Positions 26,021 through 63,790 of a stretch of 64,000 nucleotides of DNA are shown piece by piece. The notes beneath the pieces are model-generated. The model was given only the letters and a program-made list of their open reading frames with translations, did no database searches and was not told the origin of the DNA. The number at the start of each line of letters is the position of its first letter. The first letter of the stretch is position 1. The DNA is from an uncultured delta proteobacterium. Its GTDB lineage: Bacteria > Myxococcota_A > Polyangia > Polyangiales > Polyangiaceae. The stretch lies in NCBI GenBank assembly GCA_963827955.1, contig CAWHDJ010000018.1:1309297-1373296 (forward strand). The letters run 5' to 3'. A program made the translations under genes and the position numbers.

Positions 26021-26336
26021 ATGACCAAGCGCAAGCGCACCCTCGCGCGCGCCGAGGACCGCGCCCGCGTCAGAGATCGCCAGGGACCTCGAAAAGCTCG
26101 CGCTCCTCGGGCCCGGGGGCGGTCCCGAGCGTGCAATCCCCATCACCTCGCCGGCCGAGGTCGAGGTCCTCGCCCGCGCCACGCCCTGCCCCGTCTGCCA
26201 GGGCGAGGTGCGGTTCGAGGAGCACACGGCCGAGACGCACGGGGGCGTGCGGGTGCGCGTGGCCCGGGTGGCCTGCAAGGTGTGCAGGCGGCCCTGGGCG
26301 ATCTACTTCCGGCTGAGCGGGGACGCGCTCAACTAG
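26021..26336 (+). CDS. small zinc-ribbon protein (apparent frameshift near 26070)
   Basis: ATG at 26021 (MTKRKRTLARAEDRARV). The remaining ~85 aa are in the +1 frame: EIARDLEKLALLG...TPCPVCQGEVRFEEH...VACKVCRRPWAIYFRLSGDALN*, with two CxxC pairs. That frame has no start codon after its upstream stop. Confidence 0.45.
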
Positions 26337-26337
26337 A

Positions 26338-26535
26338 GCGGCGTGCGTTTGCATTGGGTACGCACCTACCGAACCGCGAGCGCGAGCGAGCGGGTGCCAG
26401 AAGGCGCGACGCTTTCGTGCCCTCGCATGCGTAGCGCTACAGGCAGCGCGACGCGGGCAAGGGCGTGGCGCGTAGGCGCCCTCTGGCACCCGCTCCCTGG
26501 CGGTCGCGGTTCGGTATGTACTCATCCCGAACGCA
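26338..26535. repeat. ~200-bp imperfect palindrome (large stem-loop)
   Basis: Outer arms ggcgtgcgtt..taccgaaccgcgagcg / cggtcgcggttcggta..aacgcacgcc. Inner arms gtgccagaaggcgc / gcgccctctggcac. Confidence 0.6.
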
Positions 26536-26542
26536 CGCCGCT

Positions 26543-26760
26543 CTAAATCAACGAGCGCGATCCTCGTTCAAGGAGCCGCTGAGCAACGTATGGAACCCCG
26601 GGCGTGAGCCCGCGGACCGGAGCCGCATGCGTCAGCACGCGGAGGCCGCGGTACAGCCCCCTGACGTCATGGTCCCCGCGCTCACGCGCGAGGCTCCGGT
26701 CCGCGGGCTCACGCCCGTGGGTTCCATCGTGGTGTCGGATCGCGCTCGGCCATTTCAGGG
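26543..26760. repeat. REP/MITE-like palindromic element pair (family shared with 32800..32961)
   Basis: Copy 26543-26620 (ctaaatcaacgagcgcgatcc...tatggaaccccgggcgtgagcccgcgg) and an inverted partial copy 26695-26760 (ccgcgggctcacgccc..ggttccatcg..gatcgcgctcggccatttcagg). Near-identical in sequence to the hairpin element at 32.8 kb. Confidence 0.7.
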
Positions 26761-26773
26761 GCCGGGCCCTCGC

Positions 26774-29192
26774 TCACTGGACGTTGCAGACGAGATCGGT
26801 GCCAGGCGTCGAGCCGCACACGGTGGTGACGACGGTCGACTTGGTGATCGCGATCTGCGTCTCCGTGTCGCCCGACGCGTTCGGGATCTGGATCGCGGGC
26901 ATCGTGAAGGTCGCGGTCTTGTAGTTCGTCGAGCTGAACGTGGCGGTCCCGAGCATCTGGTTCCACGTCTGGAACGAGTCTCCCAGCTCTGCGGCCGGAA
27001 CCTGACCACAGATGAGGCCGCTGCCGGTGCACGCGATGTTGCCCCACTGGTTGAATCCCGTCGCACATCCGACGCCCATCGCGGCTCGACCGTTGGTGTA
27101 GCTCCAGCTCGTCATTCCGTTCGGCACCGGCGTACAAGCGCCCCAGGTGAGCGTCGTCCCCGCCAGCGTTCCGCTCGCGTTGTCCACGCACGGTCGGGAG
27201 ATGGTCGGCTTGACGTTCGTGCACGCGGTGCCGCCGGCCCCGCAGTTGGCGGTGCCGGCGGCGAGCATGCCGAGGCTCGCGTCGACGCCGACGACGAGCG
27301 TCCCCGTCTGGCCGAGCACGGTGACCGCTTGCGAGAAGTAGATCGGGAGGTACTGCTCGACGAGGTAGACGGGGCCTGCCGTCGGGGTCCCCGTCGCGTC
27401 GTTCGTGAAGCGGAGGCGCAGCATGCCCTGGGTGAAGGTCGCGGTGGTGAACGGCGAAGTGTCGCCTGCTCCCGTGAACTTCGGAGTGTTCGGGTGCGTG
27501 GCGCCGACGTTCTCCGTGACGTTGGCCGCCGCGATGGGGGCTTGCGAATCGCGAACGTGCCCGAGATGTGGTACACGACGTCGGTGTACGTCCCGCACGA
27601 GGACGACGTACACGTCGGCGCCGCGCTCCACGTCCCCGAGGCCCCGCAGGTCGGATCGCCGCCCTTCTTGGTGTAGCCCGTGTTGCACGTGTACGCCGCG
27701 GTCGCGCCGAAGGTGTCCGTGCTCCCGCCGCCGTCGCCCCCGCTCACCGTCGGCGCGCCTGCGTTGGTCACGGTCGGCGGAGCGCCGCAGTTGATCGGCG
27801 CGCAGGTCGGCGCCTGCCCCCACGTGCCGTTGGCGCCGCACGTCGGGTCGGCGCCGTTCAGGGTGTAGCCGGTGTTGCACGTGTACGCCGCGGTCGCGCC
27901 GAAGGTGTCCGTGCTCCCGCCGCCGTCGCCGCCGCTCACCGTGGGCGCGCCCGCGTTGGTCACCGCCGGCGGAGCGCCGCAGCTCACCGGCGCGCACGTG
28001 GGCGCGGGCCCGGTGAACATCCCGTCGGCCTGGCAGGTCGCCATCGCGGTCCCCATCAGCGTGTAGCCGCTGTTGCAGCTATACGTCACCGTGTTGCCGA
28101 ACGTGGCCGTCGGCGCCGAGACGGAGCCGTTGGCCGGCGCCGTCGCTCCCGAGCACGTCACGGGGGTGCTGCAGTTGGTGCCGGTCCAGCCCGGGTCGCA
28201 CGTGCCGCACGTGTAGCCGGTGCCGCCGACCGGCATGCAGCCCGTCATGCTGTGTACGCACGGGTCCGGCGTGCAGCCGGTCATGATCTGGGTGCAGGTC
28301 GGCGCCGTGCCGCTCCACGTCCCGTCCGCCTGGCAGGTCTGCGTCGCGTTGCCGGTGAGCGCATAGCCGCCGTTGCAACTATAGGTCGCGACGGTCCCGG
28401 TGGTGCCCATCGTCGGCGTGACGCTGCCGTTGGCCGGCGGAACGAGGTTGGGCGTGCAGGGGCTGGGCGCGCAGGTCGGCGCGGGGGTGGCGAACGTCCC
28501 GTCCGACTGGCAGTCCGAAACGGCGGTGCCATTGAGCGTGTAGCCCATGTCGCAGGCGTAGGTCACCGAGTTGCCGAACGTGGCGCTCGACGAGGAGACC
28601 GTGCCGTTGGCCGGCGCGACGGCGCCGGTGCACGAGACCGGCACGTCGCAGTTGGTGCCCATCCAGCCCGGGTCGCACGTGCCGCACGTGTACCCGGTCG
28701 CGCCCATCGTCATGCATCCGGTCATGCTGTTCACGCACGGATCGGGGGTGCACGCCGTGTTCGTCGTCCCGCTGGAGCTCGAGCTGGCGCTCGTGGTGGA
28801 GCTGGCGCTCGTGGTGGAGCTCGCGCTCGCGCCGCCGGCCCCGCTCGAGCTGCTGGCCGCGCCGCCCGCCCCGCCGCCACCGCTGCTCGACGAGGTGGCG
28901 CTGCCCCCGGTCCCGCCGGCGCCGCTGCTCGACGAGGTGGTGCTGCCCCCGGCTCCGCTGGAGCTGGTCGACGAGGTGGCCGCGCCCCGGCTCCGCTGGA
29001 GCTGCTCGACGAGGTGGCCTTTCCGGTGCCGCTGGAGCTGGTCGACGAGGTGGCCGTGCCGCCGGTGCCGCCCGCGCCCCCGCTGCCGGTGGCCGTGGTG
29101 ATGGTCGAGGAACCACAGCCTGCGGCCACGAGGCCCAGCGCGACGATGGGGAGCGCCGCGGAGCGGTGCGGAGACGAAGAGCGCATGTTCAT
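26774..29192 (-). CDS. large lipoprotein with EGF-like and Sushi/CCP domain repeats (two apparent frameshifts)
   Basis: Lipoprotein signal MNMRSSSPHRSAALPIVALGLVAAGC (ATG ~29192; ORF 28731..29282) plus an S/T/G linker. About 5 Sushi-like units (C..P....NG.V......G..V.Y.C..GY.L.G...C...G.W.G..P.C) interleave with EGF-like CDPGW(M/T)GTNC (ORF 27112..28734). The C-terminal domain is in ORF 26774..27997. Confidence 0.65.
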
Positions 29193-29544
29193 TTCACTCC
29201 TGCGCGTGGGAGGCGTACGCGCCGCCGAGGATCGAATACCCGCGCCGCGCGTCTGGCCCCGAAGAATGACCGGCGTCAGCAAGAAGACGAGGGGGGCGGC
29301 CGGTGGTCAAGCTCTTTCGATTCGCGTTGCCGCAATCGAACGCCGGCGCAGCGCGTCGAGCCCTCCGTGAGGCAAACCCGCGTGGCTCAGGGCGCGAACC
29401 GGCTGACGACGATGTTCCCGTTGCCGCACCCGTCGGTCACCCCGAGGATGGGCGTCGCGCCGCCGGACGGGGAGCTGGTCGACGACGAAGCGCTGCTCGA
29501 CGAGGAGCTGCTCCCCCTCACCCTCGGGCTACGGCACAGGAATT

Positions 29545-29949: not shown

Positions 29950-30047
29950 CTGGTTTCCTCCTCGAGTTCTTGCCTGTGGCGAATCGAGGTTACGCGTGAC
30001 GGCCTGGAAGGCAACAACCTCATCGAGCCGTAGCGTATCCTGCCGCG

Positions 30048-31117
30048 GTGAAGCCCCTCTGCGAGATGCCGCACCCAGCGCGCCTCCACCACGCGTTGTT
30101 CCTCGCCGTCGCCTTCGTCCTCTGCGCCTGCGGCGTGACGCTGCCGCACAACCTGGTGATGCGCGACGTCGGCTTCCCGCTCGGGGACCTCCGCTTTCCC
30201 TCGGGTTTGCGCGTGATCGTCGACGAGGACCATCGCGCGCCGGTGGTGGGGGTCTTCCTCCTCGTGGGCGCAGGCTCGACCAGCGACCCGAAAGGGAAGG
30301 AGGGGCTCGCCCACTACGTCGAGCACCTCGCGTTCCAGGCGCGGCCCGATGGAAGACGTCCATCTCGAGCCTCCTCGAGCGCGCGGGGGCGGCTTCGTTC
30401 AACGCCTCCACGGGCCTCGACTACACGATCTACTGGGAGCTGGGGCCGAAAGAGGCGCTCGCCCCGCTGGTGACGCTCGAAGGCGTGCGCTTGACGTCGG
30501 CCGTCGCCAACGTCACGCCCGAGGTCGCGGCCGTCGAGCGGGAGGTGGTGCGCAACGAGCTCAGGGAGCAGAATGAGACGGGGATCTACGGTTCGATCTT
30601 CAGCTACCTGCAGGCGGCCGTCTTCCCCGCAGGCCACCCGTACGCGCGGCCCGTCATCGGCAACCACGAGAGCCTCTCCTCCCTGACGCTCCAGGACGCG
30701 CAGCGCTTCGTCGCGGCAAGCTACCGGCCGGAGAACGTGACCCTCGTGATCGTCGGCGACGTCGATCTGCAGGCGGTGCAGCCGGTCGTGGAGCGGAGCT
30801 GGCCGCCCGAGCTGCTCGCCGGCGCGGCGGCGCACCCAGCAGCGCCGCGGATCAGCGACGTACCGCCGGAGCCGCCGGAGCCGCCCCCGGCGATCCTGGC
30901 GCGCGACCAGGAGGCCGTCGCCGCGCCCGAGCTGTGGATCGGCTGGTCGCTGCCGCGCAGCTTCCGCGGCGAGGGGTCCCTCGCTCCTTTCCTGGCGGCG
31001 GTGACGCAGAACGCGCTCTCGAACGGGCTCTGGCACGACGACGACATCGGGGCGATCCAAGTCCGCCTCGTCGAAGGCGCGGAGGCGTCGATGCTCCTCT
31101 GCCGCGTCGAGCCCTGA
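30048..31117 (+). CDS. M16-family (pitrilysin/insulinase-like) zinc peptidase, unit 1 (apparent frameshift near 30360)
   Basis: Signal peptide and inverted zinc motif HYVEHLAF (HxxEH) in ORF 30048..30473. The rest of the M16/M16_C domains are in ORF 29828..31117 (NETGIYGS..., RFVAASYRPENVTLVIVGDVD). Confidence 0.65.
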
Positions 31118-31150
31118 ACGCGGCGCGGCCCGAGCGGTCCCTCGATCCGC

Positions 31151-32790
<1,640 letters not shown>

Positions 32791-32799
32791 GCGCCGCCG

Positions 32800-32961
32800 G
32801 GCTCTGCCATTTCAGGCGTTATCCCGACGAGGGCCCGCGCCCGATGGTCGGCTAAATCACCGAGCGCGATCCTGACACAACGATGGAACCCGCGGGCTCA
32901 CGCCCGGGGTTCCATACGTTGCTCCCGGCTCCTTGAACGAGGATCGTGCTCGGTGATTTAG
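32800..32961. repeat. REP/MITE-like hairpin element (same family as 26543..26760)
   Basis: gctctgccatttcagg...ctaaatcaccgagcgcgatcctgacacaacgatggaacccgcgggctcacgcccggggttccatacgttgctcccggctccttgaacgaggatcgtgctcggtgatttag. Two arms in inverted orientation. Confidence 0.7.
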
Positions 32962-33289
32962 ATTCGCTCGACCTCGCACCCGAGCTTGTACGCGCTGAGG
33001 CCGCCCGCTTCGTTCACGTCGTCGATCTGGGTCCACATCGCGTTGCCCTCCGCGGCGACTCTACCGTATGGCCGAACCGGCCTCCACCGCCCGACGGACG
33101 GCCCCCTGATCCGCCAAGGATCTCGCCCCGTGAGGCGGCAGCTCAATCTGGCGGTGGGTGGCGGCGCGGCGCGTACAGTAGAGCGGTAACCGCTGAGCCC
33201 AGCGGGACACGCTCGCCGGTTGGTCTCCCCAATCCCCCACGGTCACGTCGCCGCGTGATCACCTGCACGGGGCGGCCAGGGCCGGGGGA

Positions 33290-34150
33290 TCGCGGCCCTG
33301 TGGAGCAAAGCGGGAGCGATGACCAGCGGAGCTGGAGCGATGCGGAGCGAAGCGGGTGCGATGCGGAGCGAAGTGGCTGCGATGCGGAGCGGAGCGGGGG
33401 CGATGCGGAGCGGAGCAGGGCCGCTGGGGAGCGAAGCAGGATTGCTGGAGGAAGGGAGATGGAATCGATGAGGAGGGAAGCAGGATCGCTGGGGAGCGAA
33501 GCGGGTGTGATGCGGAGCGAAGCTGGATCACTGGGGAGTGAAGCGGGGGTGCTGCGGAGCGGAGCGGGATCGCTGCGGAGCGGAGCGGGATCGCTGCGGA
33601 GCGGAGCGGGATCGCTGCGGAGCGGAGCGGGATTTCTGGGGGAGCGAAGCTGGTTTGCTGGGGAGCGAAGCAGGTGCGCTGCGGAGCGGAGCGGGGGTGC
33701 TGCGGAGCGAAGCGGGGGTGCTGGGGAGCGGAGCGGGGGCGATGGGGAGCGAAGCGGGTTTGCTGGGGAGCGAAGCGGGTTTGCTGGGGAGCGAAGCAGG
33801 TTTTCTGGGGGAGCGGAGCGGGTTTGCTGGGGAGCGAAGCCGGATTGCTGGGGAGCGGAGCGGGTGCGATGCGGAGCGGAGCGGGTGCGATGCGGAGCGA
33901 AGTGGGTGCGATGCGGAGCGAAGTGGGTGCGATGGGGAGCGGAGCGGGGGCGATGGGGAGTGAAGTGGGTGCGCTGGGGAGCGAAGTGGGTGCGTGGGGG
34001 AGCGGAGGGGGTGCGATGCGGAGCGGAACGGGTGCGATGCGGAGCGGAACGGGTGCGGTGCGAAGGGGAGCGGGAGCGATGGGGAGCGGGGCGGGCGCGA
34101 TGCGGAGCGGAGCGGGGGCGAAGCGGAGCGAGAGCGGAAGGGACGACCCC
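33290..34150. repeat. 21-bp minisatellite, ~40 tandem units (gcggagcgaagcgggtgcgat family)
   Basis: Head-to-tail units with sub-variants (gatgcggagcg / gctggggagcgaagcgggtttgct / gctgcggagcggagcgggatc). There are no intervening unique spacers. All six frames are open. Confidence 0.85.
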
Positions 34151-34380
34151 GACCGGGCCGCCGTGTCGAGGCACCGGGGCGACGACCGCCGTGCGGCCCC
34201 TTGCATACGCTGTGCGCCCGGTCTCCTGGCGGGCTCGAGATGGCTGAAATTCCTGGCGGTTCACCACGGCTCGACGAGCCCCCACGGGCTTGACCCGAGC
34301 AGGGTTTCTAGCACGGGGAGGGGTGAAGCCTGCGCGACGCTCGCGGTTGATTTACAATGTGCTCGCACATCGTCGAGCCC

Positions 34381-37300
34381 ATGACCACGGAGTCCACCAC
34401 CGCCCAGCACCTCGACATCGGCATCGTCGTCGCTCTCCCGGAGGAGCTCCGCACCTTCCTCGACCTCTGCGAGCGCTACGTCCCTCACCCCGACGATGAT
34501 CTGGACGCTTACGTCTTCACGCGCGGCCCCTACCGCTGTGCCGTCATCCTCGTCGGCGAGATGGGCCAGACGCACGCGGGCGTGTTCACCGAGCGGCTGA
34601 TCTCGGCGCTCGACCCGACCATCCTCGTCTCCATCGGCATCGCGGGCAGCGTGCACGACGATCTACACGTCGGCGACGTCCACGTCCCGTCGCAGGCCGT
34701 CCAGTACCTCCAGGACGCGAAAGCCGGGCCCGCGCAGAGCGGCGGCTTCGCCGTCGTGCCGGGCGCGCCCGCGTACCGTGCCGACTACGCGCTCCTCTCG
34801 GCCGTCCGCACCTTCGAGTTCGACCACCGTGCCGAGCACACGAAGTGGGTGGCCGACGCCGCAGCGGACCTCGCGGCCCTGCTCGCCGACGACGCCCAGC
34901 GCCAGGGCCTTGTCGCGGGCAAGCTGGTGCGCAGCGCCGCCAGACTCCTCGCAGACGGCCACGTCGCGACCGGCCCGGTCGTGGGCGCCGTCCCCGCGTT
35001 CGGCGCCTGGATCCACACGCACGACCGCAACGTGAAGTCGATCGAGATGGAATCCGCCGCCGTCCTCTCCGCCGCGCAGACCCGGAGCCAGCCGAAGCGG
35101 GCGCTCGCCATCCGCGCGATCTCCGACAAGGGCGACGCCGACAAGAAGAAGCTGGACGACATCGAGGACGGGGTGCTGCGCAGGTATGCGATGCGCAACG
35201 CCGTACGGCTCCTCTGGGCGCTGCTCGACGCGGAGGCGTTGCCGTTCGACGCCCGGCCGTCGACGAGCCCGGCCGACGTTCACATCGCCCGCCTGCCGGC
35301 CACGGGCCGGGAACTGTTCGGTCGGGAGGCGAGAGCTCGCGTGGCTCACCGCGTGCTGGGACGAAGGCGTCCGCGTGGCATCAATCGTCGCCCCCGGCGG
35401 CATGGGGAAGAGCTCGCTGGTGAACGAGTGGCTGAGGCGCATGGACGACGCCGGGTGGCGCGGGGCGACGCGGGTCTATGGATGGTCGTTCTACAACCAG
35501 GGGACCGACGGGCTGGCGTCGTCGGATGAGTTCTTCAGCCATGCGCTGCGGCGGTTCGGGGACACGGAGGCGGCGCCTATCTCCCCCTGGGAGAAGGGAG
35601 AGCGGCTCGCGGCGCTGGTAAGGAAGGAGCGGGCGCTCCTCGTCCTCGACGGCGTGGAGCCGCTGCAATGGGGGCGGGGAGAGCAGGAAGGCAAGCTCAA
35701 GGACCCTGCCTTGCTGGCGCTGCTGAAGGAGCTGGGTGGGCAGAATGTCGGGCTCTGCATCGTCACGAGTCGGATCGCGCTCACGGAGCTGGACGGGGTC
35801 GGCGGGGACAAGGTGCGGGCGAAAGCGCTAGACAAGCTCTCGGCAGCGGCCGGCGCAAAGCTGCTCAGAGCGCGCGGAGCGAAGGGGACTGACGAGGAGT
35901 TGAAGGAAGCCGCAGCGGAATATAAAGGGCACGGGTTGGCGCTCACCCTGCTCGGATCTTATGTGGCGGATGTCGCAGAGGGAGACATTCGAAGAAGGAG
36001 GGAGATTGGCCCGCTGCAAGCGGAAGAGCGGCTCGGTGGGCATGCGCGACGGGTGATGACGGCTTACGAGAAGTGGCTCGGGAAGCCCGAGGTCGCGATC
36101 CTTCGTATGCTCGGACTTTTCGACCGGCCTGCGGAAGAGGACGAGATCGCGGCGCTGCGTGCGGAGCCGGTGGTCCCGGGGCTGACGGACGCGCTGGTGG
36201 GCGTCGATGGACGGGCCTGGAAGAAAGCCGTCGCGAAGCTCGGGCGTGTAGGGCTCCTGGAGGAGCAGGAGCAGGACAAAGGGCTCGATGCTCACCCGCT
36301 GGTGCGCGAGCACTTCGGGGAGCAGCTCAAGGAGGAGCAGCCGGAGGCGTGGCGAGAGGGGCACCGGCGGCTGTATGAGCACTTGAAGAATAAGGCGAGG
36401 CCGTTGCCCGACACCATCGAGGAGATGGCGCCGCTTTATGCGGCGGTGGTGCATGGGTGCAGGGCGGGAGAGAACCAAGCCGTATTCGACGAGATCTACA
36501 ATGCACGTATCGAGCGTGGACAGGAGCGCTTCAACGAGGAAAGGCTCGGAGCTTTCAGTAGCGAGTTGGCCTTTCTCTCGGCTTTCTTCGAATCCACCTT
36601 GGGAGAAGGTGGCACCAGGACTCGGCGAGCCGGAACAGGCCCGGATCCTCAATAACGCAGGCTTCGGGCTCCGAGTGCTGGGTCGGCTGTCGGAGGCCAC
36701 GGGACCGATGCGGATGGGGTTGGAGCGCAACATCAAGCTGGGTGATTGGAAGAGCGCTGCCAGCGCTGCCGCCAACCTGGGCGGGCTCCTTCAAGCCCGC
36801 GGCAAGCTGAAAGAAGCTTTGGCGTCTGCCAGGAACGCCGTTGACTTCGCGGACAAGAGCGGTGATCCCTTCTCTCGTATCGACACCAGGGTGGGGGTAG
36901 CCGAGTTCCTCTTCGCAACGGGGCGCAGACCGGAGGCAGCTGCGCAATTCGAGGAAGCCGAGCAGATGCAGAAAGAGACCCGTCCACACCTCGGCTCGCT
37001 CCAGGGTTTCATGTATTGCGACTTCCTGCTTGACCAGGACCGGGACGCCGAGGTGCGGGAACGCGCATCGCAAACGCTGGAAGGGGCGAGGGAGCAGGGG
37101 GTGCTTCGCGACATCGCCCTCGACCATCTCTCCCTCGGCCGCGCTCACTTTCTCGCCCTCCAGCGCGGCGCTGGCGATGTCGCCCAAGCCGCCTTCCACC
37201 TACGGCAAGCCGTCGATGGCCTCCGCCATGCCGGTTACCAAGAGCACCTTCCTCGCGGCCTCTTTGCCCGCGCCGCCCTCCACACCCACACCCGCGCCTT

Positions 37301-38081
37301 CGACCTCGCCCGGCGCGACCTCGACGAAGCCCTAACCCTCGCCACCCGAAATGGCTTCCCCCTCTTCGAAGCCGACGCCCACCTCGGCCTCGCCCGCCTT
37401 TACCTCGCCGAGGGCAATCCCGCCGCCGCCCGCGAGCACCTCGACCGCGCGCGAACGATCGTCGACGCCATCGGCTACCACCGCCGCGACCGCGAGCTGG
37501 CCGAGCTGGACGCCGCCTGCCCGGCGCCTCTCCAGGCGGTCGACCTCTTCGTGATCCTCAAGCTCGCCGCCCTGAGAGACCCATCGGCGCCGGCGTCCAT
37601 CGTGGCGGAGCAGACCGGGCTCTCGAACGACGCGGTCGCGCTGTCCCTGCACAGGCTCGGGGCGATGGGGCTCTTGAAGGAGGAGGGGGAGCACCGGCGG
37701 ATCAACAAGCTCGCGCTTCGCAAATGTCTCGAGGACGCCGTCCGCTGGATCGCGCCGGCGGAGCTGGGGGGGCTGGAGGTCGGCCTCCCCACGGCGCACT
37801 CGGCGCCCCCGCTGGCGGCGAAGCTGATCGGCGACGACGACCCCATGGTGATCCCGCTCCCGCAAGGTCCGGCGCGAGGGCGCGCGGTCACGCCCTTGCA
37901 CCCCCTCGCACCCGGGGCCGCAGCGCGCGATCCCAAGCTCTACGCGTTGCTCGCCCTCGTGGACGCCCTCCGCATCGGCGGGGCGAGGGAGCGCGAAGTT
38001 GCGGCGAAGGAGCTCGGGCACATCTATGAGGGGCGCGGAGCACATCCGGGCGATCCGCGCGGTGGTCGCGGCGTTCGGTGA
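34381..38081 (+). CDS. STAND NTPase: N-terminal nucleoside-phosphorylase (PNP_UDP_1)-like domain + NB-ARC P-loop ATPase + TPR array (apparent frameshifts near 35300 and 36620)
   Basis: PNP-like domain (IGIVVALPEE...IGIAGS...IEMESAAV) in ORF 34357..35529. NB-ARC motifs GGMGKSSL (Walker A), LLVLDGVE (Walker B) and GLALTLLGSY (GLPL) in ORF 35186..36655. TPR-like helical repeats in ORF 36438..38081. The C-terminal ~170 aa may be a separate wHTH gene. Confidence 0.7.
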
Positions 38082-63194: not shown

Positions 63195-63409
63195 GCCGGG
63201 CCGATGGTAGCGCGGGGGCGGGGGCGCTTGCGAGGAGAGCCGGCCGAGGGGATAGATTGGGGATGGGGCAAGCGGCGACTGCCACGCCCATCTCCGGCGG
63301 GCCGCCGAGCCGGGAGGCGGACGACGGGGGCGCTGGTTACACCTCCTCGTCGGCTACCGATGCCGTCGAGCGCGAGCACTTCGAGCCTCCCGCCCGCCGG
63401 GAGCGCCGT

Positions 63410-63790
63410 CCCGTCCCCAGGCGCGCCGTCCCGTCGCCGGGAGCGCCTTCCCGTCGCCAGGCGCGCCTTCCCGCCGGCAGGCGCGCCTTCTCGCCGGCAG
63501 GCGCGCCTTCTCGCCGCCAGGCGCGCTTTCCCGTCGCCAGGCGCGCCTTCCCGCCGGCAGGCGCGCCGTCCCACCGGCAGGCGCGCCTTCCCGTCGCCAG
63601 GCGCGCCTTCTCGCCGCCAGGCGCGCCGTCCCGCCGCCGGGCGCGCCTTCTCGCCGCCAGGCGCGCCTTCCCGCCAGCAGGCGCGCCTTCCCGCCAGCAG
63701 GCGCTCCTTCGGCCTGGCAGGCGCTCCTTCGGCCTGGCAGGCGCTCCTTCGGCCTGGCAGGCGCTCCTTCCGCCGGGAGGGCGCGCCTGT
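63410..63790. repeat. 21-bp minisatellite, ~18 units (caggcgcgccttcccgccggc family)
   Basis: Tandem units with point variants (…cgccgtcccgccgc… / …gctccttcggcctggcag…). A different unit from the 33.3-kb array, but the same 21-bp period. Confidence 0.85.

Follow-up and report, generated by a model that had tools for sequence, protein, structure and literature searches.

The 21-bp tandem array described here is most probably (at a rough probability of 0.7) a non-coding, G-rich and strand-asymmetric bacterial minisatellite, which is lineage-specific and located about 220–240 bp upstream of a PNP-STAND defence operon. The array looks fairly old and mostly diverged and is probably fairly stable; only an 83-bp block looks recent. 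No dedicated function is indicated, and we infer that there is none. Any effect on the downstream operon would be an indirect cis effect, exerted via spacing or DNA structure. Among the points that count against the minisatellite reading is the length of 844 bp, which is large for non-coding repeats in bacteria. The finding, an unusually long non-coding minisatellite from a poorly sampled GC-rich lineage, matters little as it stands. It would gain weight if the array length varied and controlled the adjacent defence operon, or if many arrays of the unit occurred genome-wide at comparable distances from start codons.

Anatomy of the array

Phasing on the anchor GGAGCGRAG resolved 40 head-to-tail 21-bp units on the + strand of the window, that is, the whole 64-kb stretch of DNA that was analysed. 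The units cover 844 bp (~0.85 kb; Table 1). Their length is 21 nt in 36 of the 40 cases and 22 nt in the other four (units 7, 8, 16, and 24), and the extra base of each longer unit sits in a T- or G-run. Tandem Repeats Finder (TRF) placed the array at 33325–34137, with a period of 21, 38.5 copies, 81% matches, 1% indels, and a score of 629, which makes it by far the largest tandem array within the window. The unit consensus, CGATGCGGAGCGAAGCGGGTG, is composed of TGCGAT followed by the pentamers GCGGA, GCGAA, and GCGGG; as a search pattern, the unit can be written CGATGSGGAGCGRAGYRGG. A 16-nt core (TGSGGAGCGRAGCGGG, ≤2 mismatches) gave 38 matches window-wide against a shuffle expectation of 1.45 ± 1.06. 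Thirty-six of these were inside the array, all on the + strand, and the scan revealed no second array of the unit within the window. These results confirm the sequence-only reading, which had described a ~0.9-kb minisatellite of about 40 units and had given the same core in a rotated form.

Table 1. Coordinates of the array, its parts and its neighbours in the window, and of 21-bp arrays found at other loci.
Feature	Position	Strand	Basis or remark
Peptidase M16 family gene (inactive-domain matches)	31118..32790	+	Upstream of the array; frameshifted near 31966–32065 in the assembly
110-nt nested palindrome, REP/MITE-like	32852..32961	.	Directly after the M16 gene; 335 bp left of the array
Unique non-coding spacer left of the array	32962..33295	.	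Holds one inverted quasi-unit
21-bp array, 40 units	33296..34139	+	TRF and own phasing; G-rich strand is +
Degenerate left-edge units 1–2	33296..33337	+	Phasing
Homogeneous block, units 13–16, (T/C)GCTGCGGAGCGGAGCGGGAT	33550..33634	+	83 bp perfectly 21-periodic; the only such block
Degenerate right-edge units 37–40, partial slip into an 11/16-nt period	34056..34139	+	TRF periods 11 and 16 at 33999–34138; phasing
Unique spacer from the array to the PNP start codon, 217–241 bp	34140..34380	+	
PNP_UDP_1 nucleoside phosphorylase and, behind or fused to it, an AAA_16 STAND ATPase with TPR repeats	34381..38081	+	Downstream of the array
Terrimicrobiaceae-type arrays	L013 4020–4436, 4703–4873; L017 1077–1417, 2669–3028; also L023, L029, L043, L057		
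GGAGC/GCGGA-pentamer arrays	L001/L044 193–341; L015 3858–4232; L006, L008, L016, L019, L030, L039		

The units are mostly different from one another: 35 of the 40 are distinct, and identical neighbours occur only at units 14–16, 29–30, and 35–36. Blocks of sub-variants are present at units 13–16 (three identical units and one 1-nt variant) and at units 22–24. The longest perfectly 21-periodic stretch spans 83 bp (33551–33633) and the second longest 55 bp. Recent local expansion, which had been proposed from blocks of identical units, holds for three small blocks only, and such blocks are a minority in the array. Since neighbours are only about 80% identical and perfect periodicity does not exceed 83 bp, the hypervariability that had also been suggested is unproven, and improbable over most of the array. 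Present-day changes of copy number would be expected above all in the block of units 13–16.

Variation is unevenly distributed within the unit. Positions 5, 7–10, 12, 14, 18, and 19 are conserved in at least 95% of the units, position 15 is conserved in 37 of 40, and position 11 is C in 35 of 40. Positions 1 (C/T, 28:11), 3 (A/C, 18:17), 6 (C/G, 19:17), and 13 (A/G, 20:20) are near-biallelic, and positions 20 and 21 are variable too. Overall, roughly 9–11 positions are conserved in at least 95% of the units versus six that are nearly biallelic. The order of the units is not random: adjacent units have a mean identity of 0.797 as compared with 0.741 ± 0.011 for a shuffled order, a value reached by one of 5000 shuffles, and the identity between units falls with their distance along the array. 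We attribute the likeness of neighbouring units to local duplication. The most degenerate units are the first two and the last four, which points to a lack of homogenisation at the edges; such decay would be typical of arrays homogenised from the inside.

The composition of the unit, TGCGAT plus three pentamers, suggests a pentanucleotide microsatellite as the probable ancestor of the array. The array contains 76 GCGRR pentamers, and TRF reported a period-5 row at 33554–33630. Its most likely origin is a (GCGGA)n microsatellite that later acquired the 21-nt higher-order period, and the passage from pentamer microsatellite to minisatellite would be the usual route. According to this scheme, the microsatellite would have gained an interruption, and slippage during replication and/or unequal recombination would then have expanded it at the 21-nt period. 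The 44 d(GCGNAGC) motifs of the array, together with its G-runs, may favour slippage by stabilising looped-out intermediates.

Coding potential and other identities

The array lies outside protein-coding sequence. The period equals seven codons, and long open reading frames cross the array on both strands (433 aa at 32946–34247 on the + strand, 380 aa at 33143–34285 on the − strand), so a heptad-repeat protein had been put forward in the sequence-only reading beside a non-coding locus, with every frame described as open. Three of the six frames (+1, −1, and −2) are indeed stop-free through the array; the other three carry 1–3 TGA stops. GC3 periodicity, which had been suggested as a check, gave no coding signal. 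The GC content by codon phase is flat in the array (0.68/0.72/0.73), while both flanking genes reach 0.90–0.97 at position 3 and have about 0.45–0.55 at position 2. The flat profile extends across about 32790–34350, and the longest stretch of the window without a coding call by a sliding frame caller was 32731–34141.

The translations led to the same result. In the single open + frame, four +1 insertions shift the heptad register three times, from DAERSGC to SLRSGAG, FAGERSG, and VRCGAER; selection on a repeat protein would not produce such a pattern. A search of 5.8 billion proteins with the + frame translation yielded no homologue. For the − strand ORF, a search of 1.84 billion representatives gave matches only to unrelated low-complexity heptad ORFs (e.g., DRTHFTL, DPLNLRS, and EPLRKRS), which have at most five hexapeptides in common with any array frame. 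Neither ORF appears to be present in the protein database as the source's own annotation. In view of the flat GC phase (against a GC3 of 0.93–0.97 in real genes), the stops, the register shifts, and the lack of real homologues, we rejected the repeat-protein gene, to which we give practically no credence. The same findings support the non-coding option, and they remove a potentially spurious "repeat protein" annotation.

Other identities were tested as well. A known or structured RNA was ruled out, because no Rfam family was found at E ≤ 1 across 30000–38000 and RNA folding of the array was no better than that of shuffles (z = −0.11 for the + strand and +1.88 for the − strand). Like a CRISPR array, the locus has regularly spaced short repeats adjoining defence genes. 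Unlike one, it has units that directly abut (21–22 nt from start to start) and leave no room for spacers, as had already been remarked from the letters, and its repeat is not palindromic. No Cas protein was found among 20 flanking ORFs in Pfam and PADLOC scans, which did detect M16, PNP, AAA_16/TPR, AbiEii, patatin, and others. An iteron array or a partition centromere was rejected, since the neighbours scanned included no Rep, ParA, or ParB family; plasmid and phage collections held nothing matching the array. A phase-variation contingency locus was discarded on account of the unit length (21 nt, not 1–10), the 81% matches, and the distance of at least 217 nt from the start codon.

Genomic neighbourhood

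The array occupies a 1.57-kb gap between the peptidase M16 gene and the PNP-STAND operon, in a genome with roughly 72% GC. The PNP start codon is at 34357 or 34381. Behind the PNP and AAA_16 STAND/TPR sequences follow an AbiEi/AbiEii-like pair (PADLOC PDC-M21A/B) and a patatin-domain protein, and the GC content over 35–42 kb is 0.66–0.70 compared with about 0.72–0.75 on either side. With this gene cluster and the lower GC, it is reasonable to say, as the sequence-only reading had, that the array lies next to a defence island. The REP-like element mentioned in the same place was also recovered. It is a nested palindrome with 22-nt outer arms that are 95% complementary and an inner ATGGAACCC...GGGTTCCAT hairpin, and it folds at −73 kcal/mol (z = −11). 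Copies 95–100% identical to it occur in a compound palindrome cluster at 26334–26740, 6.3 kb upstream, and the copy beside the array had no Rfam match. The palindrome is a REP/MITE-like element family of this genome.

The promoter of the PNP operon is presumably situated in the spacer between the array and the PNP start. A sigma-70 consensus scan of this spacer yielded no promoter, and no sigma-54 −24/−12 element was recognized upstream of PNP by eye. The inverted quasi-unit in the left spacer (32963–32982, 17/20 match) was dismissed as a solo unit, being within chance by a rough estimate of about 0.2 expected.

In relatives, the order is PNP (290 aa) and then a STAND/TPR protein with a length of about 1400 aa, and no tandem repeat lies upstream. 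The closest PNP homologues (69–82% identity) stand in other contexts and have no upstream array either. Where the M16 orthologue (73% identity) was found, the contigs stop within the gene or 40 bp past it, at a polymorphic site. This site is TAG in the metagenome contig L065 (~2766), where the contig L063 (~11080) and the window have CAG, and two assemblies break exactly there. The base composition, abundant Ser/Thr kinase and TPR/STAND genes, and a 51%-identical Polyangium homologue hint weakly at a myxobacterial host.

Apparent frameshifts are present on both sides of the array: in the M16 gene, near the STAND start at 35310, and at about 36440–36650. The M16 orthologue aligns to the window in two frames, the PNP ORF extends 92 codons beyond the orthologues' stop, and the STAND N-terminus (LPATGRELFGRE | AELAWL...GGMGKSSLV) is split between frames. 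Either these are long-read indel errors in the assembly, or they mark the decay of the M16 gene and the defence operon. Because of the frameshifts, the copy number of the array and its four +1 indels may include sequencing error.

One could go further and regard the array itself as an artefact, namely a repeat that an error-prone long-read assembly had collapsed, expanded, or joined as a chimera. The frameshifts of the neighbouring genes, which suggest indel errors, and the position of all four extra bases in T- or G-runs would be in line with this. We consider it extremely unlikely, since the divergence is structured block by block and does not look like noise, errors could change the copy number or single bases and not the existence of the array, and an independent assembly (L052, see below) carries the same unit family. 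The latter confirms that the unit family is real DNA.

DNA structure of the G-rich strand

The two strands of the array differ strongly in composition. The GC skew of the + strand is about +0.5, and it has 50 runs of three or more G as compared with a single run of three or more C. The mean G4Hunter value of 1.07 was the maximum for windows of that length in the 64 kb, and 38% of the 25-nt windows of the array scored at least 1.2. The G4 motifs predicted from the sequence comprised one canonical motif (loops ≤7) and five with loops ≤12. The G-rich strand also holds the 44 GCGNAGC mini-hairpin motifs (12 GCGAAGC and 32 GCGGAGC), a type of fragment reported to melt at 70–76 °C (PMC13037366). Nearest-neighbour DNA folding of three array segments resulted in z = −0.5, −3.4, and −2.2; the C-rich strand was unstructured.

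These features invite the view that the array is a functional non-B-DNA element, in which G-quadruplexes and/or GCGNAGC mini-hairpins would impede transcription or replication, or create a recombination hot spot, at the border of the defence cluster with its lower GC. The G4Hunter maximum, the G-runs, and the mini-hairpin motifs speak for it, and so do the drop in GC from about 0.73 to 0.66–0.70 right of the array and the fact that transcription coming from the M16 gene has the G-rich strand as its non-template strand. We nevertheless hold this view to be quite improbable. Canonical G4 motifs are limited to one, the folding is modest and leaves the C-rich strand unstructured, and no tRNA, integrase, or att-like direct repeat marks the border of the island near the array. 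Any repeat derived from (GCGGA)n would, moreover, have such structure potential as a by-product.

The unit family in other DNA

We scanned viral contigs, 185,579 species genomes (one each, the source genome not being among these representatives), and 241 million metagenome records with the two-unit pattern GGAGCGRAGYRGG-N6-KSGGAGCGRAG. Most of the hits were single chance matches. Others belonged to different 21-bp arrays on GGAGC pentamers in Verrucomicrobia, Gemmatimonadota, Planctomycetota, and Actinomycetes; the core that these arrays have in common is explained by the pattern, which itself required it. A single-unit scan of the viral contigs gave 10 isolated matches and no arrays.

The same unit was found at a second locus. 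The metagenome contig Ga0134128_10616789 (L052; soil-type, 1207 bp, 70% GC) ends in about 6.7 units (1–147), including CGATGGGGAGCGAAGCGGGGG, CGATGGGGAGCGAAGCTGGAT, and CGATGCGGAACGAAGCGGGTG, which align to the array of the window with 80–86% identity (E about 1e−31). The sub-variants AAGCAGGTG, AAGCTGGAT, and AAGCGGGGG are common to both arrays, and L052 was the only one of the loci fetched to contain the full 19-nt unit. Its flank is unrelated to that of the window. The unit family thus occurs at two or more loci, and it was not seen as an array in the 185,579 species genomes, the viral contigs, or the metagenome contigs other than L052. Judged by the sequence comparison, the unit appears to be a lineage-specific repeat family with at least two loci, known from different samples, and not a one-off, the second locus belonging to a related organism. 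That L052 breaks within its array is in keeping with the behaviour of short-read assemblers at such repeats, and arrays of this kind explain contig breaks in short-read assemblies of these genomes.

The L052 flank contains a gene that we take, from our own reading of its translation, to encode an ECF-type sigma factor. The gene starts about 225 nt from the array, with transcription leading away from the latter. The orientation of the array relative to the downstream gene is opposite in the window and in L052.

The arrangement of the two loci raises the possibility of cis-regulatory protein-binding sites (iteron- or enhancer-like). In such an array, the 21-bp period, equal to two helical turns, would place the sites on one face of the DNA, and the copy number would tune PNP-STAND expression. 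The conserved and biallelic unit positions, with a core of G.GGAGCG.AG..GG and variable linker positions, would also fit a selected binding-site array, as would the spacing of roughly 225 bp to the start codon at both loci (217–241 bp for PNP and about 225 bp for the putative ECF sigma gene). We find this explanation unlikely for several reasons. The unit is without dyad symmetry, forty sites are far above known operator or iteron arrays, and the array is oriented oppositely to the downstream gene in the two loci. The PNP operons of relatives (69% identity) lack an upstream array. No DNA-binding gene is paired with the array, and none occurs among the Pfam matches of the neighbours scanned. 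The neutral duplication of a few old variants would give the same pattern of conserved and biallelic positions.

A more far-reaching proposal combines this layout with the structure-prone units. The unit would define a cis element that is lineage-specific and dispersed, with arrays some 225 bp ahead of the genes they regulate (PNP-STAND here and the putative ECF sigma factor in L052), and slippage at hairpin- or G4-prone units would change the array length, leading to heritable tuning or switching of expression. The locus would then be a minisatellite-type contingency locus for an anti-phage system; we rate this as a long shot.

The occurrence of the unit family at unrelated loci could also be explained if the array were an internal part of a mobile or dispersing element. 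The common sub-variants within a different flank in L052 and the REP/MITE-like palindrome left of the array can be cited in its favour. As for its boundaries, terminal inverted repeats bracketing the array (33262–33286 vs 34147–34171) were rejected, since an equally good score was obtained with 151 of 500 shuffles. The two loci have no module in common in their left flanks, no transposase is adjacent, and no such array was detected in the collections scanned apart from L052. Altogether, a mobile element seems very improbable, and we retain the non-coding minisatellite as the best explanation.

Comparison with known repeat systems

Bacterial VNTR or minisatellite loci serve MLVA typing in Burkholderia pseudomallei, Xanthomonas, and Mycobacterium (PMC1853098, PMC12654951). 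The array resembles such loci in its head-to-tail units within the range of 10–100 bp, the lack of spacers, the intergenic and non-coding position, the likeness of neighbouring units, and the GC-rich host. Unlike typical typing loci, it consists of forty diverged units and is longer and older-looking; in addition, its unit is also present at a second, unrelated locus. The locus would make a good length marker for strain typing.

The MIRU form a minisatellite family over many, mostly intergenic, mycobacterial loci (PMC3635867; Supply et al. 1997 cited there). Similarly, the present family occurs at more than one intergenic locus of a GC-rich lineage, with two loci from different samples. MIRU units are several-fold longer than 21 bp. 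The present array, with its shorter unit, has no sequence similarity to MIRU and gives no sign that it is transcribed polycistronically or that its units contain small ORFs.

The human CEB1 and CEB25 loci are G-rich eukaryotic minisatellites that form G-quadruplexes. The array resembles them in the strong G/C asymmetry of its strands and in having one or two G-runs in each unit; its G4 potential, however, is only moderate, with loops of 6–8 nt and one canonical motif, and its host is a bacterium. The known natural d(GCGNAGC) mini-hairpins are single motifs and not tandem arrays, found at phage or plasmid priming sites and in a phage N4 promoter (PMC13037366). The heptamers are common to these and to the array, in whose duplex DNA the hairpins are predicted.

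Other repeats and minor observations

A second large minisatellite was found in the window at 63388–63788, with 20 copies of a 20-bp unit (TCCCGCCGCCAGGCGCGCCT, 87% matches) in which AGGCGCGCCT forms a perfect 10-nt palindrome. This minisatellite has no relation to the 21-bp unit, and its period is not divisible by 3. Together with the palindromic element family, it represents the other non-coding repeats of this genome.

The pattern search also returned arrays from other organisms (Table 1). Freshwater Terrimicrobiaceae MAGs and lake metagenome contigs carry a conserved 21-bp array of 16–20 copies with the unit AGCGAAGCGGGCCGAGTTCGG (89–94% matches). This array follows a normal gene and has a non-coding appearance; in the two MAG loci (L013 and L017), a 42-bp array is situated beside it. 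Short to medium 21-bp arrays on GGAGC/GCGGA pentamers were observed between genes in several GC-rich phyla, and also in one viral contig. The combination of three pentamers and 6 nt may therefore be a recurrent route to 21-bp minisatellites, in a search whose pattern selected for such arrays.

Finally, an ORF at 27112–29193 on the − strand of the window encodes five Sushi/SCR (complement-control) repeats (Pfam E = 7e−40) and has internal DNA repeats of 96/192 bp. The Sushi/SCR domain is unusual for bacteria.
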